Assembly (NCBI GenBank): GCA_964016885.1
Contig: OZ024740.1
Span: 58,838,001-58,902,000 of the forward strand
DNA length: 64,000 nucleotides
Reading direction: 5' to 3'
Origin: Eledone cirrhosa
Taxonomy: Eukaryota
Part shown: positions 15,414-63,290 of the stretch, piece after piece
Position numbering within the stretch: the first letter of the stretch is position 1
How the letters are laid out: each line of letters starts with the position of its first letter
The notes under the pieces: model-generated
Databases searched by the model: none
What the model was told of the DNA's origin: nothing
The model's input: the letters and a program-made list of their open reading frames with translations, nothing else
Translations under genes and position numbers: made by a program

Positions 15414-15799
15414 TCATCATCATCATCATGATACGTTTGCTTTCCCTGCTTGCAAGGGTGGAACGGGAACTGATTCTGGCTTGATTTCTACAGCTGGATG
15501 CCCTTCCTAACACCAACCTCATTTACAGTGAGTGCTGGGTGCTTTTTTGCCGTGGCGCATACGCGTCCACTTTACAGTGTGGGCTGGTTGCTATTTTGCC
15601 GTGTCACCTCCATGACCACTTTTCAGTGGAATGATATGGACCCCAGTCCCTATCATCTCATTTCTACAGCTGAGTAAACTGGAGCAATGTGAAATAAAGT
15701 GTCTTGCTCAAGGAAACAACACATCACCCAGTCTGAGAATTGAACTCACAACCTTTCAATTGCAAGGCCAATGCTCTAACCATTAAGCCATGTGCCTCC
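15414..15799 (-). mobile_element. SINE family A
   Basis: Reverse complement of the same consensus; lies tail-to-tail with 14957-15297. Confidence 0.92.
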
Positions 15800-15928
15800 A
15801 TATATATATACATATATAGTAAAAATAATAAATTTGAAGACTAAAATCCAAAGAGGGCTTGATAAGGATAAATATATATCAAATATATAAGAACCATAGA
15901 GCAAATATTTATTAAAATAGCAGATTAA

Positions 15929-15980
15929 AGTTTAAGCAAAGAATCGCTGCTTTCACCCTTAACGGGATCTTTTGAAACTA
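15929..15980 (-). ncRNA. Degenerate type I hammerhead-like fold
   Basis: UAGUUU-CAAAAGA-UCCCGUUAAGGGU-GAAA-GCAGCGAUUCUUUGC-UU-AAACU; core has two substitutions versus CUGANGA. Confidence 0.45.
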
Positions 15981-17011
15981 AAAAAAATCAATCTGTGAAC
16001 GCAGAAGTAAATATTTCGAAAAACGTTGCAACTGAAGGAAGACAGGAAAATGATACTTTGGTTCGTAGAAACGTTCCCTGGCAAAGAACGGAAAAAACGA
16101 AGATAATATGTCATTATTTGGATCGGTGAAAACAATTACACGCAAAGACAAAACCACGTTTATTGTATAAAGGAAGTCGTAGACTAATATTCTATTAGGT
16201 GGTTCGTGGAGACGTTCTCTGGCAATGAACGGAAAAAACGAAGATAATACATTATTATGTGGAATGATGAGAACAATTACACGCAAAGACAAAATCACGT
16301 TTAAGGTATAACTGAAGTCGTAGACTAAAATTCTATTTAGGAAACCGAATGATTCTCGGCTTCAGAGTTAAGAATAATGTAAATAAATTACAGAGGTAAT
16401 TGAAATCAACAAAAATTAAATATATACATGCACGCATCCATATACGTACATACACATGCATACGCGAAACACCCACCATGGGTATGCAAATACAAGCACG
16501 TACACAAAAACACGCACACACATACAGAATCCACGCAACGCCTGAACCCGCACACATACGAACGTATACACCAAATACACATAAAAATATATATATGTGT
16601 GTGCGTTTATACATATAATTATATAAACATATATAAATATACACACATAAATATGTATATAACGCGCGCACACACATACCTACATGTAAATCCACATGTT
16701 CACTAAACGTACGTCAACCAAAACACAAAGTACCCATATACACACACCCTACATACGTGCAAACCCGCATACTCATACAGACGCAAAACTCACGTATACA
16801 CATAACCATATGCACATGTACCAGTATATATAATATAATATATACGCCTATAACATATACAAGCAAATATACGTACGAGAAAGTATACGTACCTTCATAA
16901 AACATACAGGTAATATATACTTACCTATACAAATAAGTAATAACATAAGTATAAACATAACATATACTTAGCTACCACATCAAGACATAAATTATCTGCG
17001 TATAGTTCGTA

Positions 17012-17770
17012 CTATCCGTTAGGGTATAATGTGAGGCTGTAATACAGGAAAGTTTTGTGCAATTTATGTTTACAAGCCAAAATTGCTTCAGATGTTTTGT
17101 TTAAGATGTGGTCTTTGATGTAGAGTATTTCCAGGGCTTCAGCGGCGCAGAAGTCACATGGTCTTTTATTTCCGTTATACGATCTAGCTTTAGCTAGGAT
17201 CTCTCAGTGTAACTTATATTGGGTGTGGTTGTCTTTTAGACTCCAGATATAAGCTGAAAGTGACGTCATATTCCTTCTTAGAGGGTAACGAAAAGAATGG
17301 GTATGCATGTAAAGAGGCTGCTTGAAACTATTGGCGGTTAACCCTATGTAGGCCCTACGGGACGTGGGTGTTACAACCTTACATTTGTAGACAATGTTAC
17401 TAGAGAGGCATTTCCCGGATAGGGGGCAATCAGCCCGATTCCTACAATTAGAGTTAGTACTAACTACAGGGCTGCACGTGTTCCTACGGCTAGGTAGTTT
17501 AGCTAAATTTGAAGCTGTGATGTTATGTACAAGGTTAGGAGTCGTAGAGTAAGAAATTTTAATGGCATTTCTATTAAAAATGTTACTATATTTATGTGCT
17601 GGGAAAAATGCTTCATAATAAGGGAGAGAAAGATCTTAGCTAATGGTGTGGCCACCTCCATATTATATGGTGGGTTATACCATATAATGCGCCGGGATCT
17701 ATTTTTCCTAGGTCTATTCTCATATTCTGTACATGCTACCTTATCGACAAATCCACTCCAAGCAAGAGCT
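17012..17770 (-). pseudogene. PLE linker + GIY-YIG endonuclease, frameshifted, with an internal stop
   Basis: Manual translation: RSRRIIWYNPPY...; SNCRNRADCPLSGKCLSSNIVYKCKVVTPTSRRAYIGLTANSFKQ...TSLSAYIWSLK...KLH*EILAKA...CDFCAAE...LNKTSE...CKH; stop TAG at 17012-17014. Confidence 0.88.
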
Positions 17771-18137
17771 CCATTGTAATATGTGGAATGGTCGGTGAAA
17801 ACATGCTCGTTTGTAGATAGACGTGGTTTTGTCTTTGCGTGTAATTCTTCTTTTGCCCCACATAATGATGTATTATCTCCGTTTTTTCCGTTCATTGCCA
17901 GAGAACGTCTCCACGAACCACCTAATAGAATATTAGTCTACGACTTCCTTTATACCATAAACATGGTTTTGTCTTTGCGTGTAATTGTTTTCTTACTCCA
18001 AATAATGACGTATTATCTTCGTTTTTTCCGTTCTTTGCCAGGGAACGTTTCCACGGACCAAAGTATCATTTTCCTGTCTTCCTTCAGTTGCAACGTTTTT
18101 CGAAATATTTACTTCTGCATTCACAGATTGATTTTTT

Positions 18138-18190
18138 TAGTTTCAGAAGATCCCGTTAAGGGTGAAAGCTGCGATTCTTTGCTTAAACTA
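18138..18190 (+). ncRNA. Degenerate type I hammerhead-like fold (U4A)
   Basis: Stem I UAGUUU/AAACUA, core CAGAAGA, stem II CCC/GGG, GAAA, stem III GC...GC, CUU triplet. Confidence 0.55.
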
Positions 18191-18484
18191 TAATCTGTTA
18201 TTTTAATAAATATATATATACATAAATGGAAAAAAATGAAATTTCATTTCTCACTCTTAGTACGGTTGATACTTAAATATAAGTATTATACGTACATACA
18301 TATGTGTATACAGACGTACAGTAGTATGTATATACGTACATACATGCACATATATATATATGTACGTATGGGTTTACCGAACATTTATTATAATGCTCGG
18401 TTTGTTTGTAAACAAACAGCCAAAATTTTTAGCCGTACAGTGTTCGGCAACCATCATTGCCCTTTTGTTCAACACTGATAAAGG

Positions 18485-18529
18485 AACAATGAACTAGTTT
18501 CTAGCTTATTAGCTGTCATCAGCACCATT
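18485..18529 (-). ncRNA. Minimal type I hammerhead ribozyme
   Basis: AAUGGUG-CUGAUGA-CAGCUAAUAAGCUA-GAAA-CUAG-UU-CAUUGUU; palindromic AACUAGUU stem III; C.A mismatch at 10.1/11.1. Confidence 0.75.
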
Positions 18530-18813
18530 TACCTTCCTGTCAGTCGATTGAACGTTTGATAGTATATACTTTCCTTATGCATATTAACGGCTGAGCAGCC
18601 TAATTTGCATATCGAGTGAGTTAATCAGCCGGCGTACTGAAAACGATAAATGGAAAAAAATGAAATTTCATTTCTCACTCATTTTTTTCCATTTATCGTT
18701 TTCAGTACGCCGGCTGACTAACTCACTCGATATGCAAATTAGGCTGCTCAGCCGTTAATATGCATAAGGAAAGTATATACTTTTAAACGTTCAATCGACT
18801 GACAGGAAGATAC

Positions 18814-18856
18814 ACGGTGCTGATGACAGCTAATAAGCTAGAAACTAGTTCATTGT
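18814..18856 (+). ncRNA. Minimal type I hammerhead ribozyme
   Basis: ACGGUG-CUGAUGA-CAGCUAAUAAGCUA-GAAA-CUAG-UU-CAUUGU; predicted cut after 18850. Confidence 0.75.
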
Positions 18857-18948
18857 TCCTTTGTCAGTGTTGAACAAAAGGGCAACGATGGTTGCCGAAC
18901 ACTGTATGGCTAAAAATTTGGGCTGTTTGTTTACAAACAAACCGAGCA

Positions 18949-19842
18949 GAGTCAGAACGGGGTGGAAAAAGTTCAGAGAGCTTATACCACTATTGGCCGC
19001 TAAAAGGTTCTCTCTAAAAATGAAAGGCAGGCTGTATGATGCCTGCATACGAACAGCAATGTTACATGGCAGTGAGACTTGGGCATTGTGTGCAGAGGAT
19101 ATACGCAGACTGGAGAGGAATGAAGCTTGCATGTTCCGTTGGATGTGTAATAGTAATATACGTGAACGGCAAAGCATAAATGAACTAAGGGAGAAATTAG
19201 GAATAAGAGGAATCAGATGTTGTTTACTCGAGAGAAGACTACGTTGGTATGGTGACGTCATGCGCATGAAAGACGGCAGCTGTATAAAAAAGTGCAGGGC
19301 GATAAAAATAGACGGTAGCCACGGTGTAGGCAGACCCAGAAAAACCTGGGACGACTTGATAAATTCCGACCTCACACATTTACACCTCTCCAAGACATTG
19401 TCACTGGACCAAGATCTTTGGCGCTACACAGTAATACAGAAGACCCGCCTTGCCTAAGTACAAAGCGAAACCTACAGTCAGTAGGCACCTCTAACAAAAA
19501 TACACCCCGTCCCACCACCCCCACCCTATCCACACCACCTCTTTCGATGTAAAGTTATGTTGGTACCACAACATCCAGTCCGAAATAAATGAGGTCATGT
19601 ATGTGTCATGAAAAAAAAACACACAGTCCACGCTGTAATGTGGCTGTGTAGGAAACACGGTAAAAACCTCCCAGTCCACACTGTAAACGTGGTTGGTGTT
19701 AGGGAGGGCATCCAGCCGTAGAAAACCTGCCAGACAGTCCTATGCGAGCAAGACAACCAATCTTGCCTCAAGTGGGAAAATTCCCATCCAAACCCATGCA
19801 AGCGTGGAAGTGGGACGTTAAACGATGATGATGATGAAGATG
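18949..19842 (+). mobile_element. 5'-truncated RTE LINE (same family as 59.8-63.6 kb)
   Basis: RVRTGWKKFRELIPLL...GRPRKTW...TRLA* followed by a long 3' UTR and GAT tail. Confidence 0.95.
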
Positions 19843-19974
19843 ATGTTCGGTAAATCCATACGTACATATATATATGTGTGCATGTATGTATGTATATACA
19901 TACTACTGTACGTCTGTATACATATATGTATGTACGTATAATACTTATATTTATATATACATATATATATATAT

Positions 19975-20562: not shown

Positions 20563-20913
20563 CATCATCATCATCATCATCATCATTTCATTTTACGTCC
20601 ACTTTTCCCTGCTTGCAAGGGTAGGACGGGAACTGATTTTGGCTTGATTTCTACAGCTGGATGCCCTTCCTAACACCAACCTCATTTACAGTGAGTGCTG
20701 GGTGCTTTTTTGCCGTGGCACCTCCACGACCACTTTGCAGTGGAATGATATGGACCCCTGTCCCTATCATCTCATTTCTACAGCTGAGGTAACTGGAGCA
20801 ATGTGAAATAAAGTGTCTTGCTCAAGGAAACAACACATCACCCAGGCTGAGAATTGAACTCACAACCTTTCGATTGCAAGGCCAATGCTCTAACCACTAA
20901 GCCATGTGCCTCC
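20562..20913 (-). mobile_element. SINE family A
   Basis: Complete copy in reverse orientation. Confidence 0.92.
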
Positions 20914-25720: not shown

Positions 25721-28700
25721 TGTATGTATGTATAGACATATCATGCCAGCATGAAAAGATGTACATTACATTATGATATATATCCACAAAGATTTTGTTT
25801 TAAGTTTACATTTCTTTTTTGTTTTTGTTTTTCTTAAATGTTTTCATGGTTATTTACATTTTCGTTTATTTAGTATTCTTCCAACTCTTTTATTTACAGC
25901 GTTCTTATATTATGCTCTGAATTTGAAATTCACTTTAAACTATACATTTCAACAAGCGGTGATCCAATGTCTAATTTTATTCGGCTGTTTAGCATTAATT
26001 TTAAAGAAATAACCATATGTTTACGATTTTTAATGAGTTGTTATTTACACTATTTTCTCTTGTTACCATTTCTGATATTACCATCATCCTTGTATGTCCA
26101 CTTTTCCATACTTTCTGTGGTACCTCTCTTTATTTAGGAATGCACTTCAGTATATTCATAGTTATATAAAAAAAAACATAATAATATAATGGTTACAGAA
26201 CGAAAACAAACACATATGATATATACAAAGCACGTAATAGGACCACATACAACAAAAAGGATGTGATAGGGTTTGGAAAACTAACCGCTAACAGAGCAAA
26301 AGATAACAATATTGCGAAGAGCACAGGGAAACCTCTCTAATATTTTTTTAGGCAAGCCAGCACACTCGCAGTGTTACCTCGAGTGATGGCGAGGCTGATG
26401 TGCTAGAACAACCAAGCGCCCTCATGAGCATCACCAGTTATCTCAGTTAGGTGAGCTGCCAGTGAAGATAAGAACCTCGCAGTCAGTAGCCCAATTCCTT
26501 CCTCCAAACATCTCGAACGCCACAGGATGTTCTAGGGAGCTATTGCATCCAAATAAATAAGTGATTGGTTTTTTACCACATAGGTACTGTCTTATATCTA
26601 AGAAAAATATTTCATACTATCCATCTCAATTCACCTAGATAATGCTTTGGTATGAAAAATAAGATATATTTCTGGTTATAACATTAATTGTGGGAAAATA
26701 TTAATTTAATTTTGTCTAATAGAACCTATAACAAAGTTTGTGATGACACTTTTCTTTCCTATTCTGTGCACATTAAACAATATTTAGTATTGAATCATCC
26801 ATTAATGGATGGCTTTACTTCACCGACAGGATACTCAAGTATCAAAACATAAATGTAACTTTATCAACTACAGTTACACATACAAAGCAGACTTTTTCAC
26901 AACATTAATTCAATGCTTATTAGATTCATACTTATTATCATGAGCGTCAAACCTAATTTGTAAGATAATTTAAAATTAATGAAGAGAATCATACTTAGTG
27001 TATACCAGTAAGAGTATATATATTATTTCTGTCATCTGATATAATCAGTTAGATTTAATTGAATAAATCTTCAAATAAAACATTATTTTAATACCATGGT
27101 AGGTTTAGTATCTACTTATTAGGTAGTTATTAAGTATGTTTCCTCTTTAATTTAACCTCTGAGTGTTTACCTTCAATGAAAAAGATTCATAATGTAACTT
27201 TTGTATTTTTTAAATGAATAAAACCTTGAGATCTATCAAAATAAACCCTACTTTCAATCTATAGCTAGTGTAAGATCTGATTTTAATATGAAATGACGCA
27301 GCAGCGAGAAAAAAAATGCTCTGTCAATTAGAAGTCAAGCAGAGCTTTTTCTTAAGATTCTAGACTCTTTTTTCCATTTTGAACTGCCAGCAAAATCTCA
27401 CTTTTATTGGGAGAATAAAAGAATATTGATTTTGATAAGGTACTGAAAAGCAAAGAAGGCACTTCCAGTTGAATTAACATATTTATTTAGTACACTAAAA
27501 GGGGGAAAATTATATTTAATAAAAAAAATATATATCTTAATACTCAAAGCAGCTGACTTTCTGACAAGATACATTTCATTGATTTAGTAAACAAGTTTCA
27601 ATTTGATCATTGTATGTTGCTTTAAATAGGAGCAGCTACATTGGCATTGAAAATTCCCAATTGGAAATTTGGTCAATCAGTTCTTAATATACTTTAAGAA
27701 AGACTGCTTTGGTCTATCTATATTTCTTCAATGTAAATAATCTCAATACATCACAATTGTAAATTGATCTTTTCAGACATAATAATTATCTTCATGCATA
27801 AGTGTCAGAGAAGAGGGAGAAATAAAAATATATGCATCTTTTTAATTTTGTGAAAAAAGTGACTATGTTCTAACTAGAAAGAAAGTTGTTGGATTACTGA
27901 TAACATTTTTAAATAGAATTCATTAAAAAATTAATGAAAGACAAGCTTTAGAATCTTGCCAAAATTTACCAATATTTTAGTGTTTAGTTTTAATTAAGAA
28001 TTGCTGTCTTAAAGAAAAATATTCTTTTAATTAGATATTTTTTTGTTGTTTTAAAATGTGTCAATTACATTTTGATAAAATATAATTAATCAATTTTTTT
28101 TTTATATTCCAGCTTCTGACAAATCAAGTGTTGTTAAATATGCATAACAAGATATTGTTAATTACCTCCTTTCTTATTAGTAGTAAGTCTCTAGTTGAGT
28201 ATAAGTAAAGAATTTCCATATAATAAAGTACTCTTTATATGTATGAATACTGCCATTATTAATAATATCTTTTGATATAACATGCATATCAAAGCTTGAC
28301 TTCTAAGACTTAGTACTATTTTTCGTTACATTTATGTTGGTTTTATTTTAGAGAAGCAGTTGTTGTTGTTGTTGTTATTGTGCAGCCTCAGATCTGCTCT
28401 TATTGAACAAACTTATGGAATATAGATAATTAGCTGTATGATCCACATATACTTATAACATACATCTGTATAGTTGAGGAGTACACTGCACATTCTGACA
28501 TGCATTGATTAACAAGATGTTATAGTTTGCTTGAAACATTGTGGAATGTGTAGAAAATATTTGTTTGTTTGTTTTTTGTCAGAGACTACAGCTACGCAGA
28601 TACAATATTAATGACTCCATATTGATTTCTTCCTTGATTTTATCCCAAAATATTAAGGAATATTAAGGATTAATTAATCATTTAGCATTAACATTACTCC

Positions 28701-28856
28701 ATATATACTATTGTATTTTTACAGTAAAGGCTTTATCTTACATAAGATCTCACATAATATCGAATCTATGAAATTTTGATATTATGTATACCTTAACATA
28801 ACAATACCTTAACATCAGTATGAGTGACGACTTCTGGCTGGATACAACCAGTTTAA

Positions 28857-29061
28857 CCCTTTAGCATTTAAACTGGCCGTATCTGGCCAGAATTCTCTCA
28901 CCTCTCTCTGTTCAAACCGGCCATAAGTGGTTGCTCATACTGATGTTAAGGTATTGTTCTCAAAATAAATAATATCAAAATCTCATAGATTCGATATTAT
29001 GTGTGGTAAAGCCTTTACCATGAAAATATATTAAATGTAGAGTAATGCAAATGCTAAAGGG
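28857..29061. mobile_element. piggyBac-type MITE
   Basis: TTAA TSD on both sides; perfect 13-bp TIR CCCTTTAGCATTT. Confidence 0.88.
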
Positions 29062-29479
29062 TTAAATGTTAAAGTGTTAAACACCCTCACGGTAACTTTC
29101 CAACAGATTAGTTATTTTATTTTTGGCATTCAATATCCTATTTTTATGCATTGATTAACTATATGTGGTGTAGCATTACAGTTTGATTAGGTTGTGCTCT
29201 CTTCAATGACCAGTTTATTTCCAAGTGTGTAGATTCTGTTGGTAGTCACAAAAGGAGGTGGGCAAGGTAATTTCTACTCAAATATGATAACTACTGCTTC
29301 TCTTCATTTATCTGTAGTGCTGTGCAATCCAGCACAATGTTTGAGGCTAATGATCATATTGATAATGAGGCTATTTTTGTGTGTATGTGTTTTTTGTTAT
29401 GTTTGTGTGATCTGAATAAGATAGTGTTCTTAGGATGTTGTTGTAGATGTGTCTCTTTGATTGTGTGTATAATACTAGT

Positions 29480-36235: not shown

Positions 36236-39200
36236 GAGTCCAGTAAGACATCCTCTCTAGTGCTGGTGGCACAAATAAAAGCACCCAGTCCATGCTGTAT
36301 AGTGGTGTTAGGAAGGGCATCCAACCAGTGTATCAATGCCAAAACAATTATAAGCACAGCAACAAGTATATAGGAACAACAAAATATGAAGACGTCGCAT
36401 CTCAGAGTTGCAACACTTAATGTTGGCACTCTCAAAGGTAGATCTGCTGAAATAGCGGAGATCCTGGAGAGAAGGCATATGGATGCGTGCAAGAGGTGAG
36501 ATGGAGAGGTGCCTCTGCGAGACTAGTCGCAGGCAAACATCTTAGCTATAAGCTTTTCTGGGAAGGTAAGGATGATGGGTTAGGGGGAGTAGGCATTTTC
36601 CTGGCTGAGAAATGGATCAATAAGACAATAGAGGTAGTTGGAGTTAGTAATCGAATAATTAAGCTTAGATTAGTTGTAGGTAGGAGACTACTGACAATCA
36701 TCTCTGCCTATGCTCCCCAAGCAGGCCTAGGCAAAGAAGAGAAAGACTGCTTTTACGAGCAACTTTTACAAACAACTGCAATGACAGAGGACGGAGACAT
36801 CGTTATGTTAGCAGGGGACTTCAATGGTCATGTTGGACAGCTCCAGGATGGTTACACTGGGGTACATGGTGGGCATGGTTACAGCTCAAGAAATGAAGAA
36901 GGAGTGACACTTCTTGACTTTTGTGATGCAAGTACACTGACTATTTGCAACACTAACTTCCAGAAACCTGCCAACCACCTAATAACCTACAAATCAGGCG
37001 AGCACATAAGCCAGATTGACTTCTTACTAGTTAGGCAGCGGGACAGGCAGATGGTGTCTAATACCAAGGCATACCCTGGGGAAGAATGTACTCCACAGCA
37101 TAGGTTAGTCGTTAGTGATATCTCAGTAAGCAAGAGATGGAATGAGACACACAGGAAGGTGTGGAGAAGAAAGGTCTGGAAGCTAAAAGACCTTTCACTA
37201 AAATACAAATTTAGGAAAGCCCTTTAAGATGTGTATGACGAAAAACAAGACAATTTAGAGACGTATGACATAGATAATAACTGGAATTTCTTACATGACA
37301 ACTTACTGCTGGCTACTGATAAAACTTGTGGCTGGAGCAGGGCTCCAACCAAACAAAGAGTGACCTGGTGGTGGAACAGCACAGTAGATAAGGCCATTAG
37401 AGACAAAAGACTAGCATGGAAGGCTTGGAAAAAGGGTGGGAGTAGAGAAGGATATACAGCAGCTAAGAGAGAAGCTAGACGTCGGGTGTACTTAGCACGC
37501 AGGGAGGCTGAGAGTAGGAGGTTTGCCAATGTTCTGCGATGGGAAGATCAGAGGCGTGCTGTGTTCCACATTGCAAGGCAGTGTGTCAATGCAAATCAGG
37601 ATGTTGTTAGAGATAAATGTGTCCGGAATGATCCCTGTGTACTTAGTGTCACGAATGATCAGAAAAAGGAGGCCTGGAAATGTCGCTATGAGAGACTGAT
37701 GAATGTGGAAAACGAATGGGAGAGAGAGAAATTACCCTTGGTAGATCCGACAGAGGGACCAGCTATTGAGATTGACGAATATAGGGTCCAAGAGGCGATG
37801 AAGGAAATGAAAAATGGTAAGGCTGCTGGACATCGGGGATAGTTGCTGAGATGCTGAAGGCATCAGGGGACATAGGCACTAAACTGGTTGCACGCATCAT
37901 CAATCAGACTATATATGGTGGTGTCATACACAAAGACTGGTGCAGCAGTATTCTCATAAACTGCTACACAGGTAAAGGGGATGCTCTGGAGAGGAGCAAT
38001 TATAGGGGTATAAAACTGATGGATCAGGTTATGACAGTGGCAAAAAGGATATTAGCACAACTAATTAGAGAAAGGGTCAAACTAGATGAGATGCAGTTTG
38101 GTTTTGTGCCTGGGAAGAGTACAACAGATGCCCTCTTCTTGGTGAGACAATTACAAGAGAGGTTCTTAGAGAAAAATAAGCCACTATACTTAGCCTTTAT
38201 TGACCTAGAGAAGGCCTTTGATAGGGTACCCCGATCTGTCATCTGGTGGTCCCTAAGGAAACTAGGTGTTGAGGAATGGCTTGTGAGGACAGTGCAAACT
38301 TTGTACAGAGGTTTTGTCAGTAAAGTCAGGGTAAGAATGGAGTTTAGTGAGGAATTCCAGATACAAGTAGGAGTACATCAAGGTTCAGTCCTCAGCCCCC
38401 TCTTATTCATTATAGTCCTCCAAGCCATAACAGAGGAGTTTAAGACTGGCTGTCCATGGGAACTTCTCTATGCTGACGATCTGGTTCTTATAGCAGAATC
38501 AGTAGAGGAGCTAGAGAATAAATTCTGGCTATGGAAACAGCAGTTGGAAGCAAGAGGACAGAGAGTGAACCTAGCTAAGACAAAAGTGTTGATGAGTAGA
38601 AAAGAGGACAAAACTCTGATTCCGTCAGGGAAATGGCCATGTTCGATATGCAGAAAATGAACTGGCATAAATTCTATAAAATGCACACAATGTAGATCCT
38701 GGGTACATAAGAGATGTAGCGGGATAACAGGTAGGGAGAAATACGTATGCAGTAGATGTACAGGGAAATTAGACAGTAGAAGTCGAAATGATAGACACAT
38801 TTTTCAAATGCAGGTGGGTGCTATAGAAGTGGTGAATAGCTTCCAGTTCCTAGGAGATTAGCATGGGAGGAGGGTGTTCCGAGGCCATAGTATCTAGAAT
38901 AAGGACGGGTTGGAAGAAGTTTAGGGAGCTGCTTCCTCTGCTGACAAAGAAGGGTTTCTCCCTGCGTACGAAAGGCCGGTTATATGATGCCTGTGTGAGG
39001 AGCGCGATGCTGCATGGTAGTGAGACATGGGCAGCAACTGCAGAGGATATGCGACGGCTGGAGAGAAATGAGGTAAGCATGCTCCGTTGGATGTGCAATG
39101 TCAATGTGTGTGAATGACCCAGCATGAATATGTTGAGAGAGAAACTGTGTCTGAGAGGGATAGATGTAGTGTGCGAGAGAGGAGACTGAGGTGGTATGGA

Positions 39201-47295: not shown

Positions 47296-49903
47296 GATTT
47301 TTTTTAATGGAGAATCCCTTATGTTTCTCACTGTACCATTTTATAGTTCATAAACCCAAGCAAAAATCGATCTAAGTAATCAATTATCAATTACCATCTA
47401 TTGATTTTGATAAAGCTAAGTATTATGTGCTTTATATATATGTACAAAATATTATGTCTTTCTCAAACGATATATGGTTCTTTATATACATGTATCTTTT
47501 AACTTGAATTATATATAAATATATCAATATATATTGTTATACTTGGGGAGGGTCATATTTGTGTAATAATATTGCCAGAATTAACAACAGAACAAATATC
47601 AATATATATGTACATACATATACATACACACACACACACATACACATATATATGTGTGTGTGTGTGTGTGCGTGTGTGTATCCCAGGCTCAATCGGGGGT
47701 AATGACAGTAAGTAAGGTACTCAATACATAGAGTATATAGAATATTTAATATAGAAATGGCTTCTATAAACACACACATATACATATTAATCCAAGCCTG
47801 CAACATTTTGCTTTGTATGCAAATAAGCTTCATCAGCCTATGTACATAAGCATAAAAACTATATGCCTTTTGCTTATTTCATCTTAACAACCAAAAAGAA
47901 TAAGTCTCTCTGGCGATGGTGAAAGAACAAGAAATGGTACTGTCAGTGTGCCCTCTCTTTGTTGCTAAGAATAATAACAACATGATAACAGCTTTTTTAA
48001 AATTCATAGCAAGGCTACAAGGATGTTTATTTACATGAACATTTCATATATACTTCAATATACAGCCTCAGTCATATATATATAGGGCAGGTAAAATTCG
48101 TGAGATAGTATATATATATATAGCTCCAGACCAAACCACATATATATATATATGGTTTAGTCGGGAGCTATGCCTTTTGCTTTTGAGAATTAGATTAAAT
48201 GACATTTAAGTAGATTTCATTTAGTGGATTGTAAAATCTGAAGTAGCTAAAATGTTGATTTGAGTTGTTAAATAAAATGCTTCATTATTTCTTATTTTAC
48301 TGCAAGTGCAATAGTCCTTTTGTTCAAAACACTTAACCACATTTAATTTAGTTTGGGGATTTATATTTTGTCAGAAGGACCAATTATATGTACTAGTTGT
48401 AGGCTAAAAGAAATAAGTAGCTTACAAATTTTTGCATATAGTCTAGAGAAACTTTCAAATAACCTTAAAATTAGAATTGATCCTGATTTCTAATTAGGGA
48501 ATTGTATCAAAATATTGATACCATGCTTTCTCTTCATTTACACCAAGCCGAAAAGTGAATTTAATTTTATTGGAAAACAGAATCTGCCAACTTAGCCATT
48601 ATTTCCATCACTGCATTTTCCAATAAACACTGTTGACATCTCTCTTGGATTCAATAATTTACTTAACATAGCTGTCTCTTGACTGAAGAGCAAATGGGTA
48701 TCAAAATTATGAATTACTGAAAAGATATTGATTTACTTTGAAATATCAATTTATTTTTCAATATATTCTAAACAAATGTTTAATTAAGTATTTTCCATTT
48801 TCAAATTACAGTGTGAACACAACAGGCTTAACTTTACCCATACACTCTATAAGGAAAATAATTTACATTTTACATTTACAAATACTACAGCAGCTGTTCT
48901 ATTATTTGGACAGATATTGAATATATTTCAGAAACCATTCACATTTTATATGTCTTTGGCTGAGGAAATAAACAGCAATTTCTTTATCATTTAAATTTTC
49001 TTATTGGCAACATGACCCTCCCAAAGTATAACAATATCGGTTTCAACACACGATTTCAGATAAAGAATCTTGCTAAACAAATTCAGAAACGAAATGTCAT
49101 AAATCAAAATATATCAAAACTGATGATTTGATAAAATTAAAGCAAGACATTCCTTTTTTAGTTCTTTTATATCATGATAAATGCAAGTATAATAAATTAT
49201 TCTGACATGTTAGAGAAAGATTTGTATGTCATCTTATCGAGTATTTATGAAAGAGAGCAGCCAATTTTGTTTATATTAAAAATCCTTTAGTTCTATTATA
49301 AACAACTCTTTGTGGTTGCTCTCTCCACTTACTCCTAATTGTTTCATAATTTTTAAGTTACCAAAATTATGTTGTGTCAAATTGTGCCAAATGTTCTTTT
49401 CCATTCATTTTTAAACAATCTCTTTTTTTTTCATGTGGTAAAATCATTTGCATTTAAGTTTTAATATCTAAGTTTCATTAACACACTTTATTACAGTTCT
49501 AACAAGGCCTAGACAACCATTTGAACTTATTTCCATTCCCATAACGCCTATACAATGTAAGAAGTAATAAATCTTACATACTTGTACTAATGTAATATAA
49601 TATTATATATATAATATTATTCTACAGACATGGCTTTGAAGAAGCTGTTTGCATAATTGCAAACGGATCGAATATTATTATTAATATTCGAAAAACTCAG
49701 ATTACATTTATATATATATAATATTATATATAATATAATATTGTATATATATATGTAATATTTTATATAATATAATAATATATATAATATTATATATACA
49801 TATATATATATAATATTATATTATATATAATATTATATATATATATATATATACTATTATATTATATAAAATATTACATATATATACAATATCATATGAT
49901 ATA

Positions 49904-49941
<38 letters not shown>

Positions 49942-49967
49942 TATAATAAAAAAACATAAGATAATTA

Positions 49968-50028
49968 TTTCATTTACCAGTGGTTTCTTGAAAGCAAACA
50001 AAATTTCCTTTCAATCATCAGAATAAAA
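49968..50028 (-). ncRNA. Type I hammerhead ribozyme
   Basis: UUUUAUU-CUGAUGA-UUGAAAG...CUUUCAA-GAAA-CCACUGG-UA-AAUGAAA; intact core, 7-bp stem II, GUA triplet. Confidence 0.85.
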
Positions 50029-50637
50029 AAATCCTGGTGTATTTATTGACAGTGGATATTAGAAAGCAAAAATATAATCTATATGAAAATGAGGCTGGAA
50101 AAGGAAGAAGGAAAGGAAAAAGAATAAGTATAAAAGTAGATAAACACACATGCATGCACACACACACACACATGCACACACACATATACATACACACATA
50201 TATACATATATATACATATACACATATATATATATACATACACACATATATATATATATACATACACACATATATACACATACATATATATATACATATA
50301 CATACATACACATATATATATATATACATATCCATACATACACATACACATAAATACACAAACACAAACAACTTAGGAAAATAAAAATAAAAATTATTAT
50401 AAAGTTGACAGCGATACAGGAAAGGACACAAATAAATGAACAAACACACGTGGTAAGCAATAAACACATTTACACATACACATACATACATATAAATATA
50501 TACATACACACACACACACATACACACACATATACATATATATATATACATACATATATATATACACATCATCATCATCGTTTAACGTCCGTGTGCCACG
50601 CTTGCATATATACACACACACACATACATATACATAT

Positions 50638-51421
50638 ATCATCATCATCATCATCACCGTTTTACGTCCGTTCTTCCACGCTAGCATGGGTTAGACGGGT
50701 TGTCCTGTTGTGGGCAGTGTCTGGTCGGCTGACCATGCCTTGCTCATACAGGAACTGATCTGGCTTGATTTCTACAGCTGGATGCCCTTCCTAACACCAA
50801 CCTCATTTACAGTGAGTGCTGGGTGCTTTTTCGTGGCGCCTACACGTCCACTTTACAGTGTGGGCTGGGTGCTTTTTTGCCGTGGCACCTCCACGGCCAC
50901 CTTGCGGTGGGTGGGGGGGGGGGGGGGCATATTGTTTATATGCTTCAGCATGTACCCATGGGAGGTCGGGTACCCTGTATTACTGCGTGACGCCAGAAGT
51001 CACGGTCGTGTGTCATTGACTTTGAGAGGTGTAGTTGGGTAAGGTCGGCTTTTATCACCTCATCCCAAGTCATCTTGGGTCTCCCCACTCCGCGGTTTCC
51101 ATCAACTTCTAGTGCTCTGCACCTTTTTATGCAGCTGTCATCCTTCATACGCATCACATGTCCATACCAGCGTAACCGCCTCTCCTGCACGCAGCATTTG
51201 ATTCCTCTTATGCTCAGTCTCTCTCTCAATTCCTTTATGCTTTGTCGTTCACGTATATTACTGTTACACATCCATCGGAGCATGCAGGCTTCGTTTCTCT
51301 CTAATCTACGTAAGTCTTCCACCTTCAGCGCCCAGGTCTCACTACCATGCAACATCGCTGTTCGGATACACGCATCATACAGTCTGCCTTTCATTCTGAG
51401 GGAGAAGCCTTTTGCAGCTAA
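50638..51421 (-). mobile_element. 5'-truncated RTE LINE with a SINE-A-like 3' UTR
   Basis: ORF 50945-51469 LAAKGFSLRMKGRLYDACIRTAMLHGSETW...; UTR matches the 10320-10567 SINE tail. Confidence 0.93.
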
Positions 51422-51502
51422 TATATATATACATATGTGTGTGTGTAAAACATTCTTTGATGTATTCATTGAACCTAGTATAACTCTTAAATATATATCT
51501 AT

Positions 51503-52396
51503 ATATATACGAAATAAATTAAATTAAATTAAATTAAGGGAGTCATGCCCGAGACATGCACCATATCCACCGTAGAATAAGCTCAAAGATTCCATTGAAT
51601 AGATCCAAGCATTTTATATCAACTAGAAATTGATTGACATATATATATATATTTAAAATAAACACATGAAACAATCACAGGGGATAATTTGTAAAGTGTG
51701 TAATCACACATAGCATTTTTTAAAAGGTAATATTTGAAGCTCTAGTTAAACTTTAATTAGTTACCTACCTAGCTGTGTGTGATTACACACTTTACAAATT
51801 ATCCCCTGTGATTGTTTCATATGTTTATTTTAAAAATATATATATATGTCAATCAATTTCTAGTTGATATAAAATGCTCGGATCTATTCAATGGAATCTT
51901 TGAGCTTATTCTACGGTGGATATGGCTCGGACATGACTCCCTTAATTTAATTTAATTTAATTTATTTCGGATATATAAACGGCTCCTTAATTGTAGAGCT
52001 AAATCGGTTGAAAGGACTCGGCTGCTATTTATAGCTGTCGACCACCCTATTCACGCCAATGGGAGGACGCTAGCATGTTGTTAGTAGTTTTAGAATTACA
52101 ACATGTGCGACGGGTCACTCGCAGATTTGCATTTGATGTGTAAACACAGATAGTTATTTCTTGCCCCTTGCTGAATATCCAAGATTTGACTACTGTGACT
52201 TTACGGATTATTGGTGAAATATATACAAGGAGGATTAAACATTTTTTAAAAGGTAATATTTGAAGCTCTAGTTAAACTTAATTAGTTACCTACCTAGCTA
52301 TGTGTGATTACACACTTTACAAATTATCCCCTGTGATTGTTTCATGTGTTTATTTAAAAAATATATATATATGTCAATCAATTTCTAGTTGATATA
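51503..52396. mobile_element. Foldback + tandem non-coding element (526-bp unit) with a degenerate HHR
   Basis: 51503-51714 is inverted at 51772-51977; 51714-51871 is directly repeated at 52240-52396. Confidence 0.85.
52166..52230 (+). ncRNA. Degenerate type I hammerhead-like fold (G8U)
   Basis: CCUUG-CUGAAUA-UCCAA...UUGGU-GAAA-UAUA-UA-CAAGG; palindromic minimal stem III. Confidence 0.55.
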
Positions 52397-52587
52397 TATA
52401 TATATAAGAAAATACATAAATATTATATATATATAAAAATAAAAAGGTGGAAGGGGTAAACAAATAGTTGGGAATACGACAAATAATAAATAAATAGATA
52501 AAGGTATAAATGTTTATAGCTGATTTAGAGCACTCAACAAGTTCCTAGAGCAAATAATCAATGAAAATAAACATTAAATCACTCTGT

Positions 52588-53020
52588 GCATCATCATCAT
52601 CATCATCATCAACGTTTAACGTCCGTGTTCCACGCTTGCATGGGTTTGGACGGGGGTAGTCCCACTTGAGGCAAGAGTGATTGTCTTGCTCGCATAGGAC
52701 TGTCTGGCAGGTTTTCTACAGTTGGATGCCCTTCCTAACACCAACCACATTTACAGTGTGGGTCTGGGAGGTTTTTACCGTGTTGCCTACACGGCCACAT
52801 TACAGCGTGGACTGTGTTTTTTTGTCATGACACCTACACGATCTCATTTGTTTCGGCCTGGATGGTGTGGCACCAACATAACTTTACATAGAAGGGGGCG
52901 GTGTGGATGGGGTGGGGGTGGTGGGACGGGGGTGTATTTTGTTAGAGATGCCTACTGACTGTAGTAGGTTTTACTTTGTATTTAGGTAAGGCGGGTCTTC
53001 TCTATTACTGAGTACCGCCA
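52588..53020 (-). mobile_element. RTE 3' fragment (family of 59.8-63.6 kb)
   Basis: Near-identical to 59855-60272. Confidence 0.93.
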
Positions 53021-53347
53021 ATATATATACACACACACACACACAACCATACAAATACACACATATATACATATACATACATATATATATATATATACAT
53101 ATACATATAGGAAAAAGTATGACCCCGACGGCAGAGCTCAAGCCGTTTCGACGGCTATTATATATATATACACATATAAACACATACATATATATAAAAA
53201 TACACATATACACACACACATATATACAAAAAGTTGCGTCACCATCTTAATAAAAATACACACACACATATAAACACACACATATATATATACACACACA
53301 TATACACACATACATTTATACATACAGATATATACAATTATATACAC

Positions 53348-53399
<52 letters not shown>

Positions 53400-53715
53400 T
53401 TATATACACATATACACAACACATACATACACACAGAAATAAATATCTATAAATAAAAAACGTGGGTATGTAAAGGGTAAGGTAGAAAGTAGGGGGGAAT
53501 AAGGAAAAATAAATAACATAGGAAAAAGTTTAAATATAAGGGGAGATAAGGGAGAAAAAGAATATAAGAGTACAGAAAGTGAGTTCATAATTAATTGTGT
53601 GTGTGCGTATGTAGGTGTGTGTACATATATCTATATTTCTGTGTGCGTATGTATGCATGTGTGTATATATGTGTGTATGTGTGTGTGTATGTACATGTGT
53701 ATATATGTATGATTA

Positions 53716-53764
<49 letters not shown>

Positions 53765-53865
53765 GTGTGTGTGTATGTATGGATATGTATATATATATAT
53801 ATATATGTGTATGTATGTATATGTATATATGTATATATATGTGTATGTGTATATATGTGTGTATG

Positions 53866-53940
<75 letters not shown>

Positions 53941-54109
53941 GTATATATGTGTGTATGTATATGTGTGTGTGTGTGTGTGTGTGTGCATGTGTGTTTATCT
54001 ACTTTTATACTTATTCTTTTTCCTTTCCTTCTTCCTTTTCCAGCCTCACTTTCATATAGATTATATTTTTGCTTTCTAATATCCACTGTCAATAAATACA
54101 CCAGGATTT

Positions 54110-54170
54110 TTTCCTTCTGATGATTGAAAGGAAATTTTGTTTGCTTTCAAGAAACCACTGGTAAATGAAA
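54110..54170 (+). ncRNA. Type I hammerhead ribozyme
   Basis: Inverted copy of 49968-50028; one mismatch in stem I; predicted cut after 54163. Confidence 0.82.
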
Positions 54171-54416
54171 TAATTATCTTATGTTGTTTATTACATAACT
54201 AATAAGCTCTCTAACCTACATAGAGCACTCTTTTTTCCTGGACCTTTCCGACGGAATTACTTCATTTATATATATATATATATATAAATGTAATCTGAGT
54301 TTTTCGAATATTAATAATAATATTCGATTCGTTTGCAATTATGCAAACAGTCTCTTTAAAACCATGTCTGTAGAATGACCCCATAATTCTTTATCTTATG
54401 TTGGCATGTAAATAGA

Positions 54417-55744: not shown

Positions 55745-57110
55745 TGACTTGGGCTTTGGTGTTGATGTAGAGCAGTGATATCAGGTCCACTATCTTCTAG
55801 GGGATTCCATAGGCCTGTAAGATCTTCATCAGGCAGTGACGGTCCACAGAATCGAAGGCCTTCCTAAAGTCAATGAAAACCATGACCGCAGGAAGGCACT
55901 TTGCTTTAGCTCCCTCTAACATCCTCCTCAGCATCAGGATGTGACTGGTGGTTGATCTTCCCTCTCTGAAGCCGTTCTAGTTGTCCCTGAGCCTCTTCTC
56001 CATCTCAGGCTGGACCCTGTTAAGAATCATCTTGTTGAGGGTCTTTGCCACAAGTGATGTCAGTGAGATCCCCCCTGTAGTTGTTGGTGTTAGAGAGATC
56101 TCCCTTCTTTGGCACTGGGACGATGTTACTGATCCTCCACTGATTAGGGGCAACTCCTTTTTCCAGTGCCTGGTTACAGAACCCCAAGTCATTACACCTG
56201 ATGGGATGACAGAGTTCTTTGAGATACTGGCTGGAGTGCTCCAGGGAGATACATTGGCTCCCTACCTTTTTATCATCGTAGTGGACTATTGTATGCGCCT
56301 TGCACTGGAGAAACACCAGGACTCTGGCTTTACTGTAGCACCGGCTCAGAGCGGGAGAGTTAAGGCAAAAAAGATATCGGATGGTGAATTTGTCGACAAC
56401 ATAGTTTTGGTGACAAATACAGTGAAGGAGGCAGAGGATTTGATGCAGGGGGTTGAGACTGTGTTGATGAGTGTGGGGCTGAGAATGAATGAGACTGAAA
56501 CAAAATATCTGGTAGAGAATGTTGAGAAGCCAAAGGGGATAACTAATGTAGGCGGGAAGCCGCTAGAATTGGTTGAGGACTTCCTGTATTTGGGAGCAAA
56601 GATTGGGAATATGGAAGATGATGTGGTTGAGAGGAAGAGCAAGGCCAGGGCGGCGTGCCACAGCTTGAGATCGGACCTTCATAAAGACCTGAAAATCCGC
56701 CTCTTCATTGCTGTAGTGGAGTCTGTGCTGGTGTACGGGTCTGAGACTTGGACACTGACCGAGAAACTCACTCAGATGGTGAATGGGTGCTACACGAGAA
56801 CGCTGAGGATGGCTCTGAACATTAATCAGTATACACTGAGGATGAAAAACAGAGCTGTATGCAAGCCTCCCAAAAGTCAGCTCAAAAGTGACACAGAGGA
56901 GACTGAGGTTAGCTGGACATGTTCACCGACTTTCAGAGTTGACATTGCACTCAGTGCTCCTGTGGGAGCCCCTACATGGACACACTGGAAGAGGAAGACC
57001 AAAGTTAACGTATGTTGATGCCCTAAGGACAGACACTGGTCTGTTGGAGACGCAGGACATGGCAGCGATAATGAGGGACAGAGACCGCTGGAGAGAACTC
57101 GTCCAGTGAG
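55744..57110 (+). mobile_element. 5'-truncated RTE-group LINE with an inverted 5' segment (55744-56182 on -)
   Basis: - strand: QWRISNIVPVPKKGDL...NGFREGRST...FIDFRKAFDSV...YINTKAQV; + strand continues QVITPDG...GVLQGDTLAP...YGSETW...GRPKLTY. Confidence 0.92.
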
Positions 57111-58397: not shown

Positions 58398-58446
<49 letters not shown>

Positions 58447-58563
58447 TGTGTATATAGTATATTTGGCAATACACTGTATTTAAAAACATTTTGAAAACCT
58501 TACGCTATTGTTTTAAAGTAGTGACTATGTCACTTACTTCTTTTTTCAACAAATAAAGGGAGA

Positions 58564-58611
58564 TAAGCTGACAGATCTCTGTTTCATACTGTTGGTATTC
58601 ATCAGAGCTTA
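58564..58611 (-). ncRNA. Type I hammerhead ribozyme
   Basis: Exact reverse complement of 58804-58851. Confidence 0.92.
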
Positions 58612-58803
58612 GCACTCTCCTTTGTCTGTTGAAAATTATAAATGTTGGATTCTTATAGAATTCCAGTAATAATCAGGAACTGATTATACAGAGCCGGTCC
58701 AGCAAAAATTGAAAATAGAATTGGTGCTCTGAAATAGCGATGTATATATGTATATACATCGCTAATCCAACATTTATAATATTCAACAGACAAAGACGAG
58801 TGC

Positions 58804-58851
58804 TAAGCTCTGATGAATACCAACAGTATGAAACAGAGATCTGTCAGCTTA
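58804..58851 (+). ncRNA. Type I hammerhead ribozyme
   Basis: UAAGCU-CUGAUGA-AUAC-CAACA-GUAU-GAAA-CAG-AGAU-CUG-UC-AGCUUA; all three stems Watson-Crick, GUC triplet, predicted cut after 58845. Confidence 0.93.
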
Positions 58852-58988
58852 TCTCCCTTTGTTTGTTGAAAAAAGAAGTAAGTGACATTGTCACTACTTT
58901 AAAACAATAGCGTAAGTCTTCAAAATGTTTTTAATTAAGCATATACTATATATACATTCATATATACATCGCTATTTCAGAGCACCAA

Positions 58989-59024
<36 letters not shown>

Positions 59025-60233: not shown

Positions 60234-63200
60234 TTAGGTAAGGCGGGTCTTCTCTGTTACTGAGTACCGCCAAAGGTCTCGGTCCAGTGACATTGTCTTG
60301 GAGAGGTGTAAGTGTGTGATGTCGGAGTTTATCAGCTCGTCCCAGGTTTTTCTAGGTCTGCCTATTCCGTGACTACCGTCTATCTTTATTGCCCTGCACT
60401 TTGTTATACAGCTATCGACTTTCATGCGCATCACGTGTCCATACCAACGTAGCCTTCTCTCGAGTAAACAACATCTGATCCCTCTTATCTCTAATTTTTT
60501 CCTTAGTTCTTTTATGCTTTGCCGTTCACGTATATTACTGTTACACATCCAGCGGAGCATGCAAGCTTCGTTCCTCTCTAGTCTGCGTATATCCTCTGCA
60601 CACAATGCCCAGGTCTCACTGCCATGCAGCATTGCTGTTCGTATGCAGGCATCGTACGACCTGCCTTTCATTTTTAGTGAGAACCCTTTAGCAGCTAATA
60701 GTGGTATAAGCTCTCTGAACTTTTTCCAACCAGTTCTGACTCTAGCTACAGTACTTTCAGAGCACCCTCCCCCGCTGCTGATTTTATCGCCCAGGTAACG
60801 GAAGCTGTCCACTATTTCTATAGAACCCTCTGCGCAATTGAAAGAGCTAGTATTTTGTGGGCACTTGCTGCTACTTATTGTACCAGAGCACCGGCCACAT
60901 GTAAAATCTATGTTCTTAGTTAGCTTACCTGTGATCCCACTACATCTTTTATGCACCTATACTTTGCATTTAGGACATAAAATGGAGTTTCTACCTACGC
61001 CTTTCCTACACACCGAGCACGACCATTTCCCAGAAGGGACCGCCGCCTTGTTTTCTTTCCTACAAACTAGTACTTTGGTCTTAGCCAGGTTAATTTTAAG
61101 TCCTTTTGACTCTAGGCCGTGCTTCCATGTTTGGAATTTCTTCTCTAGCTCGGCCATTGATTCCGCTATGAGTGTCAGGTCGTCTGCGTATAGGAGTTCC
61201 CATGGGCAGCCTGTCTTGAACTCCTCTGTTATAGCCTGAAGGGCAATAATAAATAGTAGTGGGCTGAGAACAGAGCCCTGATGGACGCCAACTTTTACGC
61301 TAAACTCTTCACTATATTCGTTGTTAATTCTAACCTTGCTGACTGTTTCTTTATACATGGCTTGTATAGCCCTCACAAGCCATTCGTCAACGCCTAGTTT
61401 TCTAAGAGCCCACCAGATAATGGAGCGGGGGACTCTGTCGAAGGCTTTCTCCAAGTCGACAAAAGCTAAGTAGAGGGGTTTACCTTTAGCTAGGTACTTC
61501 TCCTGTAGTTGTCGTACTATGAAAAGAGCGTCTGTGGTACTTTTGCCTGACACAAACCCGAACTGCATTTCATCTAGGTCAATTCTCTCTCTGATTAGTT
61601 GCGCTATTACTTTTTCCGTGACCTTCATGACCTGGTCGATTAATTTAATGCCTCTATAGTTACTCCTATCTAGGGCGTCTCCTTTACCCTTATAACAGTT
61701 AACGATGATGCTGCTATGCCAGTCCTTCGGAACAACCCCATTCTGTACGACTTGGTTAACTATGCGGGTGACCATGGTGTGTCCCACCGTGCCAGATGCC
61801 TTCAGCATCTCAGCAACTATTTCCGAAGGCCCAGCCGCCTTACCCGTCTTCATATCCTTGATTGCCTTACTTATTATACTCCCCTCGACTAACACTGCTG
61901 GTCCCTCTATTGGGTCGATATGGGGGAGACTGTCTTTCTCCCATTTATTCTCCTCATTTAGTAGCCTTTCATAGTGACACTTCCAAGTTACCTTCTTATC
62001 AGCGTCAGTGATGGCAAGTGTGCCATCGTCGTTTAGTACACACTTCTCCCCGACAATATCACGGTTTTCCTTGACGCATTGCCTAGCAATCCTGAACACC
62101 TCACGTTTTTGGTCATCGCGTTGTAGAACATGCTTGAACTTTCTTTCCTCAGCTTCCCTTCTTGCTAAGTACACTTGTCTCCTAGCTTCCCTCCTGGCCA
62201 CTTGATAGTCTTCTCTACTTCCCCCATCCCGCCATACTTTCCAAGCCTGCTTTTTGGCCTTAATTGACCCCTCCACCTTACTGTTCCACCACCATGTTAC
62301 TCTCCTCCTGCCTACAGGCCTGCTCCAGCCACAGACTTCGTCTGTCGCCAACAGCAGGTTTGCTTTCAGAAATTCCCACTCTCCCTCTATATTGTCCGAC
62401 TCTAAATGTTCTTCCTTACTGTCGAAAGCATCAAGTAATATGCTTTGAAATTTATTCCTGGCTGTGGGGTCCTTTAGCTTCCATATTTTTCTCCTGAGGA
62501 TAGTTCTCTTCTGCTGTCGGGTACGTCTCGTCCTGACTATGAGGTCGCTAATTATCAGTCTATGTTGGGAGGTGCATTCTTCATGGGGGAGGGATTTAGT
62601 GTTTACAACAGACACTCTGTCACGTCTTCTGGTAAGAATATAATCTACCTGGCTTGTGTGTTCCCCGGATCTATAGGTGATCAGGTGATTGTCACGTTTT
62701 TTGAAGTTAGTGTTACAGATAGTTAGGTTATTTGCATCACAGAATTCCAGGATTCTGGAGCCTTCCTCATTTCTAGTACCAAACCCATAGCCTCCATGGA
62801 TTTCGTCGTAGCCGTCACAATGTTGTCCAACGTGACCATTTAGGTCGCCTGCGATAATTATATAGTCCCTGTCGGATATTTGGGAGGTAGTTAGCATCAG
62901 TGTCTCATAGAATCTGTCTTTTATAGTGCCGGGCAGTCCGGATTGGGGTGCATACGCAGATATTACTGTCACCGTAGTTCTATTGAGGACAAGTCGTATT
63001 TTAATTATTCTGTCGTTCACTCTATTTACGTCTATTATCTTATCTGCCCACTTTTCTGCTACCATGATTCCTACTCCACCCAGCCCATCGTCGTTTCCCA
63101 CCCAGAAAAGCTTATAACATCGTTTTTTACCCTCAATGAACCTAGCAGACCCACCCCTCCACCTGGTCTCTTGAATACAACAAACATCGACCTCCTTACG

Positions 63201-63290
63201 TTCAAGCATTTCTACAATCTCGTTAGTGCGACCCTTTAGGGTGCCTACATTTATGGTACCAACTCTGAAGTTTTGGATTGCGTTTGGGGG
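60234..63290 (-). pseudogene. RTE APE-RT polyprotein frame (about 1000 codons) with a single in-frame TAG at 60957-60959
   Basis: ORFs 60957-63209 and 60234-60956 abut in frame; the stop replaces the Trp of KC..WVHKRC (compare CRSWVHKRC at 38.7 kb). Confidence 0.93.

Follow-up and report, generated by a model that had tools for sequence, protein, structure and literature searches.

The locus at positions 58443-58993 of the analysed window (the whole 64,000-nucleotide stretch of Eledone cirrhosa DNA) carries one hammerhead ribozyme on each strand, and raises the question of whether it is the source of an active retrozyme-like RNA, as suggested in the original prediction, or the residue of some other insertion process. 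The evidence points to a decayed insertion of the type made by Penelope-like elements (PLEs), in which the inserted sequence is a high-copy, non-autonomous hammerhead mini-element of the retrozyme type; we consider this reading probable. Insertion into a (TA)n tract was likely performed by a PLE endonuclease and reverse transcriptase (RT) acting in trans, as judged from the anatomy of the insertion.

The element consists of two arms placed head to head, with a (TA)n tract on either side. The minus arm passes at its 3' end into the left tract (58401-58442), which is the likely insertion target, and the right tract (58994-59023) is likely the target's other half. The minus arm comprises about 1.0 unit and reads B (35 nt, 58716-58750, the 5' start of the arm), C (64 nt, 58652-58715, which occurs once here, adjoins B and A elsewhere in the genome as well, and contains an EcoRI site at 58658) and A (209 nt, 58443-58651, the hammerhead-bearing 3' part of the unit, with no tail). 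The plus arm comprises about 0.75 unit: 14 nt of B folded back, then A (58764-58958, a 5'-truncated inverted copy), then B again as a 35-nt tail (58959-58993), which matches the B of the minus arm (58750-58716) exactly over 35 nt. The unit measures 308 nt, with 32% GC and a longest ATG frame of 18 codons. The proposed ORF-less unit of about 305 nt, with the order B-C-A in the minus copy and A-B in the plus copy, is thus confirmed; the folded-back 14 nt ahead of A had been overlooked, together with a 30-nt palindrome (58735-58764; 14-bp arms, 2-nt loop) that lies at the head-to-head junction and is built from the start of B.

The two arms are 93% alike, and their 211-column alignment contains 8 substitutions and 5 gap events. 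Compared with other members of the family, each arm has changes private to it, and near the 3' end of A a different piece that those members hold is missing from each arm (insertions at 58479; loose ends at 58941). The flanks outside the TA tracts show no duplication, and both ends of the element lie inside (TA)n, which would mask a target-site duplication (longer than 4 bp in retrozymes, where present). The permutation point falls 113-148 nt downstream of the predicted ribozyme cut, not at the cut site. Neither an RT nor a GIY-YIG open reading frame is present inside the element, tblastn with 11 relatives of a PLE endonuclease remnant in the window (see below) returned no endonuclease-like coding remnant in or near the unit (best E 0.21), and 58443-58993 contains no head-to-tail array and no second hammerhead on either strand. 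No other sequence in the 64,000-nt window, including that Hydra-type PLE remnant, matched the element.

Both arms carry the same type I hammerhead, at 58564-58611 (minus) and 58804-58851 (plus). It is composed of a 6-bp stem I, the CUGAUGA core (58605-58599 on the minus strand, 58810-58816 on the plus strand), a stem II of 4 bp closed by a 5-nt loop, GAAA, and a 4-bp stem III with an AGAU loop, followed by a GUC site whose C17 is at 58570 (minus) or 58845 (plus), the cut being predicted directly after it. In both arms the features of the type are present (a CUGANGA core, GAAA, an NUH site, and three helices with stem I open), and the stem sizes are the canonical 6 bp for stem I and 4 bp for stem II given in PMC4209133. 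Beyond a 3x1 internal loop, stem I is prolonged as a long hairpin (58782-58870 on the plus strand) that carries the hammerhead and shows pair-preserving variants in other copies; this internal loop and the 5-nt loop 2 are candidate partners for a loop 1-loop 2 tertiary contact (for the role of loop-loop contacts, see PMC6155905). A descriptor scan gave five matches in the window, including both arms, and none in 60 dinucleotide-shuffled windows at either stringency. The hammerhead pair is real and well beyond chance, and the fold and the scan bear out the identical ribozyme that had been described for the two arms. No Rfam hammerhead model matched either arm, even at E values up to 10, and the matches to miRNA and snoRNA models found over the element, all sub-threshold, were rejected as hairpin or chance matches.

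The constrained hammerhead fold lies 1.1-1.7 kcal/mol above the minimum-energy fold, and is thus not itself the minimum; in both the linear and the circular monomer folds the difference is 1.7 kcal/mol. The unit as a whole folds far better than its shuffles (z = -4.76, 0/100). Two pairs beside the internal loop of stem I are lost in the plus arm, and a C-G pair (58554) that other copies keep is lost in the minus arm. The AGAUCU palindrome noted earlier in stem III exists (58837-58842), but it is not centred, overlapping both loop 3 and the 3' strand, and stem III is stable without it; a dimer-type ribozyme formed through this palindrome was rejected as unneeded, stem III already having 4 bp. 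The ribozyme had also been singled out as identical between arms that otherwise differ. The differences are there, and a 63-nt identical run spans the ribozyme in both arms, but an identical run of at least 63 nt has P = 0.10-0.33 and a clean 48-nt window P = 0.03-0.12; the identical stretch is within chance and therefore gives no sign of selection at the locus. When a 19-nt ribozyme pattern was searched for in metagenome contigs, five matches were obtained, none extending beyond 20-26 nt or having the flanking core and stems, and these were dismissed as chance; viral contigs gave none. Segment A also contains a 6-bp hairpin downstream of the ribozyme (58881-58895 and 58520-58534). In a tandem or circular RNA, the A-B junction would lie within a predicted 7-bp stem that pairs the 3' part of A with the start of B. 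These structures are a possible RT recognition element.

To place the locus among its relatives, we surveyed contig sets from three sequencing runs of one sample together with the raw reads of a second sample (X13) under the same species label. The survey covered these sets only; in runs X4-X12, from other organisms, the shares were small (0.04-0.14). The family is represented by 4,813, 4,268 and 4,498 contigs in the three runs and by 5,573 reads in the second sample. Summed depth in X1, which is not a copy number, ranges from 2,130 to 366,106 over the element versus 8-67 in non-repetitive flank bins. The unit therefore belongs to a very abundant dispersed genomic family. Diverged contigs bridge the C-A and B-C joins (records 3-7, 15-20 and 22 of the 24 listed), and the end of A precedes B-C elsewhere: 58751 reads T>A in 133/185 and 21/56 X13 reads, and at least 15 X3 contigs have a loose end behind 58750 that shows the end of A ahead of B-C. 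The circuit A-B-C-A thus closes at the level of the family; among the contig pieces listed, none spans a whole unit or two units, and a full tandem dimer was not seen. B is followed by TA-rich sequence (58716) in 38, 30 and 39 contigs of the three runs, which identifies the end of B as a recurrent insertion end. The reference is left in the middle of C, at 58694, by 61, 42 and 56 contigs and by 348 X13 reads (a median of 87 loose letters, with agreement of about 0.7); the sequence beyond these breaks is heterogeneous and may belong to copies that are truncated, to subfamilies that have diverged, or to a longer body upstream. Pile-ups of X13 read ends near 58659-58662 coincide with the EcoRI site, as expected for a restriction-based library.

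Variation among copies was read from the variants, joints and loose ends among those listed, beyond which the family has a further 156 variant rows, 75 joints and 1,055 loose ends, and all of the counts are unphased. The free core position 7 varies (58814, 58601). The base pair at the foot of stem II changes from A-U to G-C, with the 58817 change in 66/106 and 60/68 X13 reads and the 58829 change in 81/121 and 136/151 X13 reads, and the hairpin pair 58629/58549 likewise changes from A-U to G-C in other copies. A loose-end consensus at 58623 (at least 19 and at least 15 contigs, and at least 266 reads) reads as a U3-A8 core, a natural covariation reported for PLE hammerheads (PMC4209133). Within the limits of unphased counts, covariation across the copies appears to keep the hammerhead fold. 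The hammerhead hairpin (58533-58646) is much more diverged in other copies than the adjoining segments: its loose ends give three or more distinct consensuses, and joints there skip 86-106 nt. The family seems to hold several ribozyme subfamilies inside a conserved frame.

As a unit, the element resembles the non-LTR retrozymes of metazoans, which measure 350-390 bp in mussel and 220-245 bp in coral (Cervera and de la Pena 2020; PMC7229834). Retrozymes of this kind are expressed as circles, and the same source names PLEs "a strong candidate" for mobilising them in animals. The likeness comprises a canonical type I hammerhead in a high-copy, low-GC, ORF-less unit of 150-450 bp, good folding that leaves the ribozyme accessible, and PLEs as proposed helpers; at 308 nt and 32% GC, the unit lies within the size range and below the 45-50% GC ceiling of these elements, and its multiple copies are evident in the family contigs and reads. 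The Eledone locus differs from them in its head-to-head arrangement of about 1.0 and 0.75 units, in place of a head-to-tail array, and in a stable 4-bp stem III; circles and cleavage are features of retrozymes, for which the locus offers a predicted fold. The comparison of the unit with described families was made through Rfam and one supplement only. A recent preprint (bioRxiv 10.64898/2026.07.22.740005) argues that retrozymes are non-autonomous PLE derivatives and reports cleavage in one of nine tested dimers. The proposed origin and helper are the same as here, and solo monomers are common in that work too; in the parts considered here, the argument is vertebrate-centred and draws on co-occurrence and pseudo-LTR homology, not on tails, inversions and target sites. 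Membership of its "active" class calls for two hammerhead units in succession, which the Eledone locus does not have. The retrozyme-like reading is hence upheld as regards the small ORF-less unit, the canonical-type hammerhead, the closed A-B-C-A circuit and the fitting size and GC content, and falls short where two consecutive hammerheads are called for.

The anatomy of the insertion, in turn, matches that of a PLE. A 5'-truncated inverted copy adjoins the other arm head to head at its 5' end, the junction is palindromic (58735-58764), the 35-nt tail is one-sided, on the plus arm, and lies inside the 30-40 bp range of PLE tails, and (TA)n borders both ends, as for the targets of the Hydra and Naiad clades. 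According to PMC8557442, PLE insertions take the form of partial tandems in which the 5' end is occupied by a 5'-truncated copy in inverted orientation and one end has a tail of 30-40 bp; the same work reports that Naiad and Hydra elements favour (TA)n and that Hydra elements carry hammerheads. PMC3846280 describes copies placed head to head, with junction palindromes and a 31-bp tail. The locus thus shares the inverted 5'-truncated copy, the palindrome and the tail with the insertions of endonuclease-containing (EN+) PLEs (PMC3846280, PMC8557442, PMC11167929), as well as a hammerhead near the 3' end and an AT-rich target; unlike EN+ PLEs, it has no RT or GIY-YIG frame, and its entire monomer is only about 305 nt. 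In the experiments of PMC11167929, a purified PLE protein cut and extended both strands of AT-rich DNA, reverse transcription in vitro started internally at two sites, with the interval between them forming the tail, and insertion in vitro did not need hammerhead cleavage. Two internal RT starts would explain, without a circle, why the outward 3' end of one arm coincides with the end of A and that of the other with the end of B. By this analogy, the A-B join would be a PLE tail, with internal priming on a linear tandem transcript sufficient to explain it. The earlier use of the A-B join as a pointer to a circular template finds no support here, given that a 35-nt tail, an inversion and a palindrome are standard in PLE insertions.

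Within the PLEs, the Hydra clade offers the closest parallels. Nearly all Hydra PLEs insert in (TA)n, their hammerheads lie about 100-270 nt from the 3' end, and the stem III arms ACAG/CUGU, as in the ribozyme of the locus, are common to four listed members (PMC8557442, section 11 and File S2); a Hydra-like remnant is also found in the same window. The differences are that Hydra-clade PLEs are coding elements of 1-3 kb, that no shared termini were found within the window, and that the hammerhead row of Hydra-1_Obim in File S2 of PMC8557442 differs in all three stems. A 10-nt motif of the element's ribozyme was absent from the PLE supplement searched (PMC8557442), and the window yielded no autonomous partner sharing the ends of A or B.

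The window holds further loci of a related kind. A PLE endonuclease remnant at 17063-17709 (minus strand), interrupted by a frameshift and a stop, was not recognised by Pfam; its relatives (11 of 14 candidates, then 34 of 110) reach about 710 aa, are 36-50% identical, and include proteins with the Hydra-clade CxCX5C linker, the first C of which reads S in the remnant. The surrounding region (15810-18220) is 5'-truncated and Hydra-like, has TA at both outer ends, and is bracketed by a 400-bp inverted repeat (15905-16303 and 17818-18213) with subrepeats of about 140 bp. A decayed hammerhead-like motif occurs near 18130-18170, inside this inverted repeat. A second hammerhead family forms a head-to-head pair at 18222-19953, with cores at 18522 (minus) and 18820 (plus), a minimal type of ribozyme with a palindromic stem III, and an ORF-less unit of about 425 nt; it has an exact 35-nt duplicated end (18222-18256 = 18646-18680) that runs into TA, and its plus arm is broken by an RTE-like insert (about 18949-19842). 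In a third inverted pair (49619-54376), hammerhead-like cores at 50021 (minus) and 54117 (plus) have a long stem II and a stem III layout that resembles the Hydra-1_Obim row in File S2 of PMC8557442; each arm passes into a TA tract, and other repeats separate the two. The setting of the locus within the window therefore includes a Hydra-type PLE remnant and two further pairs of head-to-head hammerheads, of which one has a 35-nt duplicated end of its own, and with these three further inverted loci the head-to-head layout is common in the genome. No sequence in the window is common to the 58443-58993 element and either the other hammerhead pairs or the PLE remnant.

Taken together, the features of the locus are compatible with the following course of events. 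Tandem or partial-tandem source copies, with the A-B-C-A joins present in other copies of the family, would have been transcribed, and the hammerhead may then have cut the multimers to monomers, possibly with circularisation as in the coral and mussel retrozymes; variation within the family appears to keep the fold. A PLE protein, most plausibly from the (TA)n-targeting, hammerhead-bearing Hydra clade, would have nicked both strands of the (TA)n tract. With internal starts of reverse transcription where A or B ends, 35 nt apart, one arm would have acquired a tail and the other none; the arm ends are those observed at the locus, and the mechanism is taken from PMC11167929. The start of B could then have folded back and linked the two cDNAs head to head, leaving the palindrome present today, and the differences between the arms would reflect either independent decay afterwards or the use of two slightly different templates. 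With its hammerheads on opposite strands, the locus provides no single-strand transcript containing two cut sites, and hence no monomer release; it would seem, from its sequence, to work as an offspring insertion and not as a monomer source. The proposal that it is active is accordingly not sustained, each strand having one cut site and each arm its private changes.

Three other explanations were weighed against that of a mini-element inserted by a PLE in trans. The locus might be the stump of an autonomous Hydra-type PLE of 2-3 kb, with A and part of C as its 3' pseudo-LTR and B as its 5' start. In that case the B-C-A copies would be only derivatives that arose by deletion or by template jumps during insertion, and would not have a small-RNA life cycle of their own. 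Every PLE hallmark is present, the hammerhead lies 113-148 nt from the 3' ends, resembling the positions in Hydra PLEs, some records leave the reference at 58694, and the plus arm itself is an example of a possible jump from B into A. Nevertheless, the B-C join recurs in diverged copies from two samples and is among the deepest bins (240,701 in X1), the tblastn search described above found no endonuclease-like remnant, and the canonical 6-bp/4-bp ribozyme layout is tied to retrozyme repeats by PMC4209133 and PMC7229834; we regard the autonomous stump, and equally the derivation of the B-C-A copies that it implies, as unlikely. Still less probable is that the template was a covalently closed circle of about 305 nt, excised by the hammerhead and reverse transcribed through the A-B junction, with the locus as an active circular-RNA producer. 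The closure of the A-B-C-A circuit at the family level, the good folding of the monomer (with the hammerhead 1.7 kcal/mol from the minimum), and the circles expressed from coral, mussel and axolotl retrozymes of similar size (PMC7229834) fit such a template, but the permutation point differs from the ribozyme cut site, the 35-nt overlap equals the PLE tail, which is explicable without circles, hammerhead cleavage was dispensable for insertion in vitro (PMC11167929), each strand has a single cut site at the locus, and neither arm is longer than about one unit.

That the inversion arose apart from insertion, through a local accident to the DNA (replication with fold-back, or recombination, at the TA tract) or through a fold-back error of the assembly, is very improbable. 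TA-rich ends and a central palindrome would favour snap-back, and none of the records listed covers the whole locus; however, the 8 substitutions and independent indels that separate the arms do not resemble the product of a read fold-back, sequence outside the TA tracts is unduplicated, only the plus arm has a tail, and three other hammerhead- or PLE-bearing loci of the window are inverted in the same sense. Returning to the preferred reading of a decayed PLE-type insertion of a mini-element, its strongest extension, in which the family is a true retrozyme family with a closed circle of about 305-320 nt, retrotransposed in trans by a Hydra-clade PLE at thousands of sites, is one that we would advance only tentatively and judge rather doubtful.

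The locus is ordinary in kind, as hammerhead repeats of such a size and inverted, tailed PLE insertions are both already known; its value lies in having a retrozyme-type ribozyme and the marks of PLE insertion together in one ORF-less unit. A large family with the tail, inversion and target of a PLE at its ends would make the question of the helper testable from insertion anatomy as well as by the in vitro PLE assay. If a circle and a Hydra-clade PLE were indeed involved, the insertion ends, with their PLE signature of two RT starts 35 nt apart, a fold-back inversion and a (TA)n target, would be direct anatomical evidence for the proposed partnership between retrozymes and PLEs, and the family would be a ready substrate for asking whether a PLE RT copies circular RNA. 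The subfamilies with a U3-A8 core are natural variants suited to cleavage assays. No description of the family was found in the mostly open literature searched, and it may already be catalogued, for instance in Repbase or Dfam; the main text of a study of Octopus vulgaris repeats (PMC13282606) contains neither "ribozyme" nor "hammerhead".

Beyond these loci, the DNA of the window is of animal type and rich in AT, and contains many microsatellites as well as RTE-like fragments of RT. A sigma-70 promoter scan, irrelevant to an animal genome, gave 4 sites versus 6.3 expected, and two tRNA-like Rfam matches that reached the gathering score were rejected as hairpin or chance matches. LINE fragments, which we take to be RTE, lie at 60957-63290 (minus), 36451-38660 (plus), 18849-19457, 50945-51523 and 55981-57018; one has a 777-aa frame with an APE endonuclease and an RT (Pfam RVT_1, E = 3e-32). 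Self-inverted elements of 400-480 bp at 51502-51977, 52297-52396 and 28674-29065, with no hammerhead core in the descriptor scan, are possibly MITE-like or PLE stumps, and 51615-51714 is repeated in inverted orientation at 52297-52396. Finally, tRNA-like heads at 10139-10196 (plus) and 20843-20906 (minus) belong to a dispersed repeat of about 350 bp, which is present in several copies, including an inverted pair at 14934-15822, and is likely a SINE.
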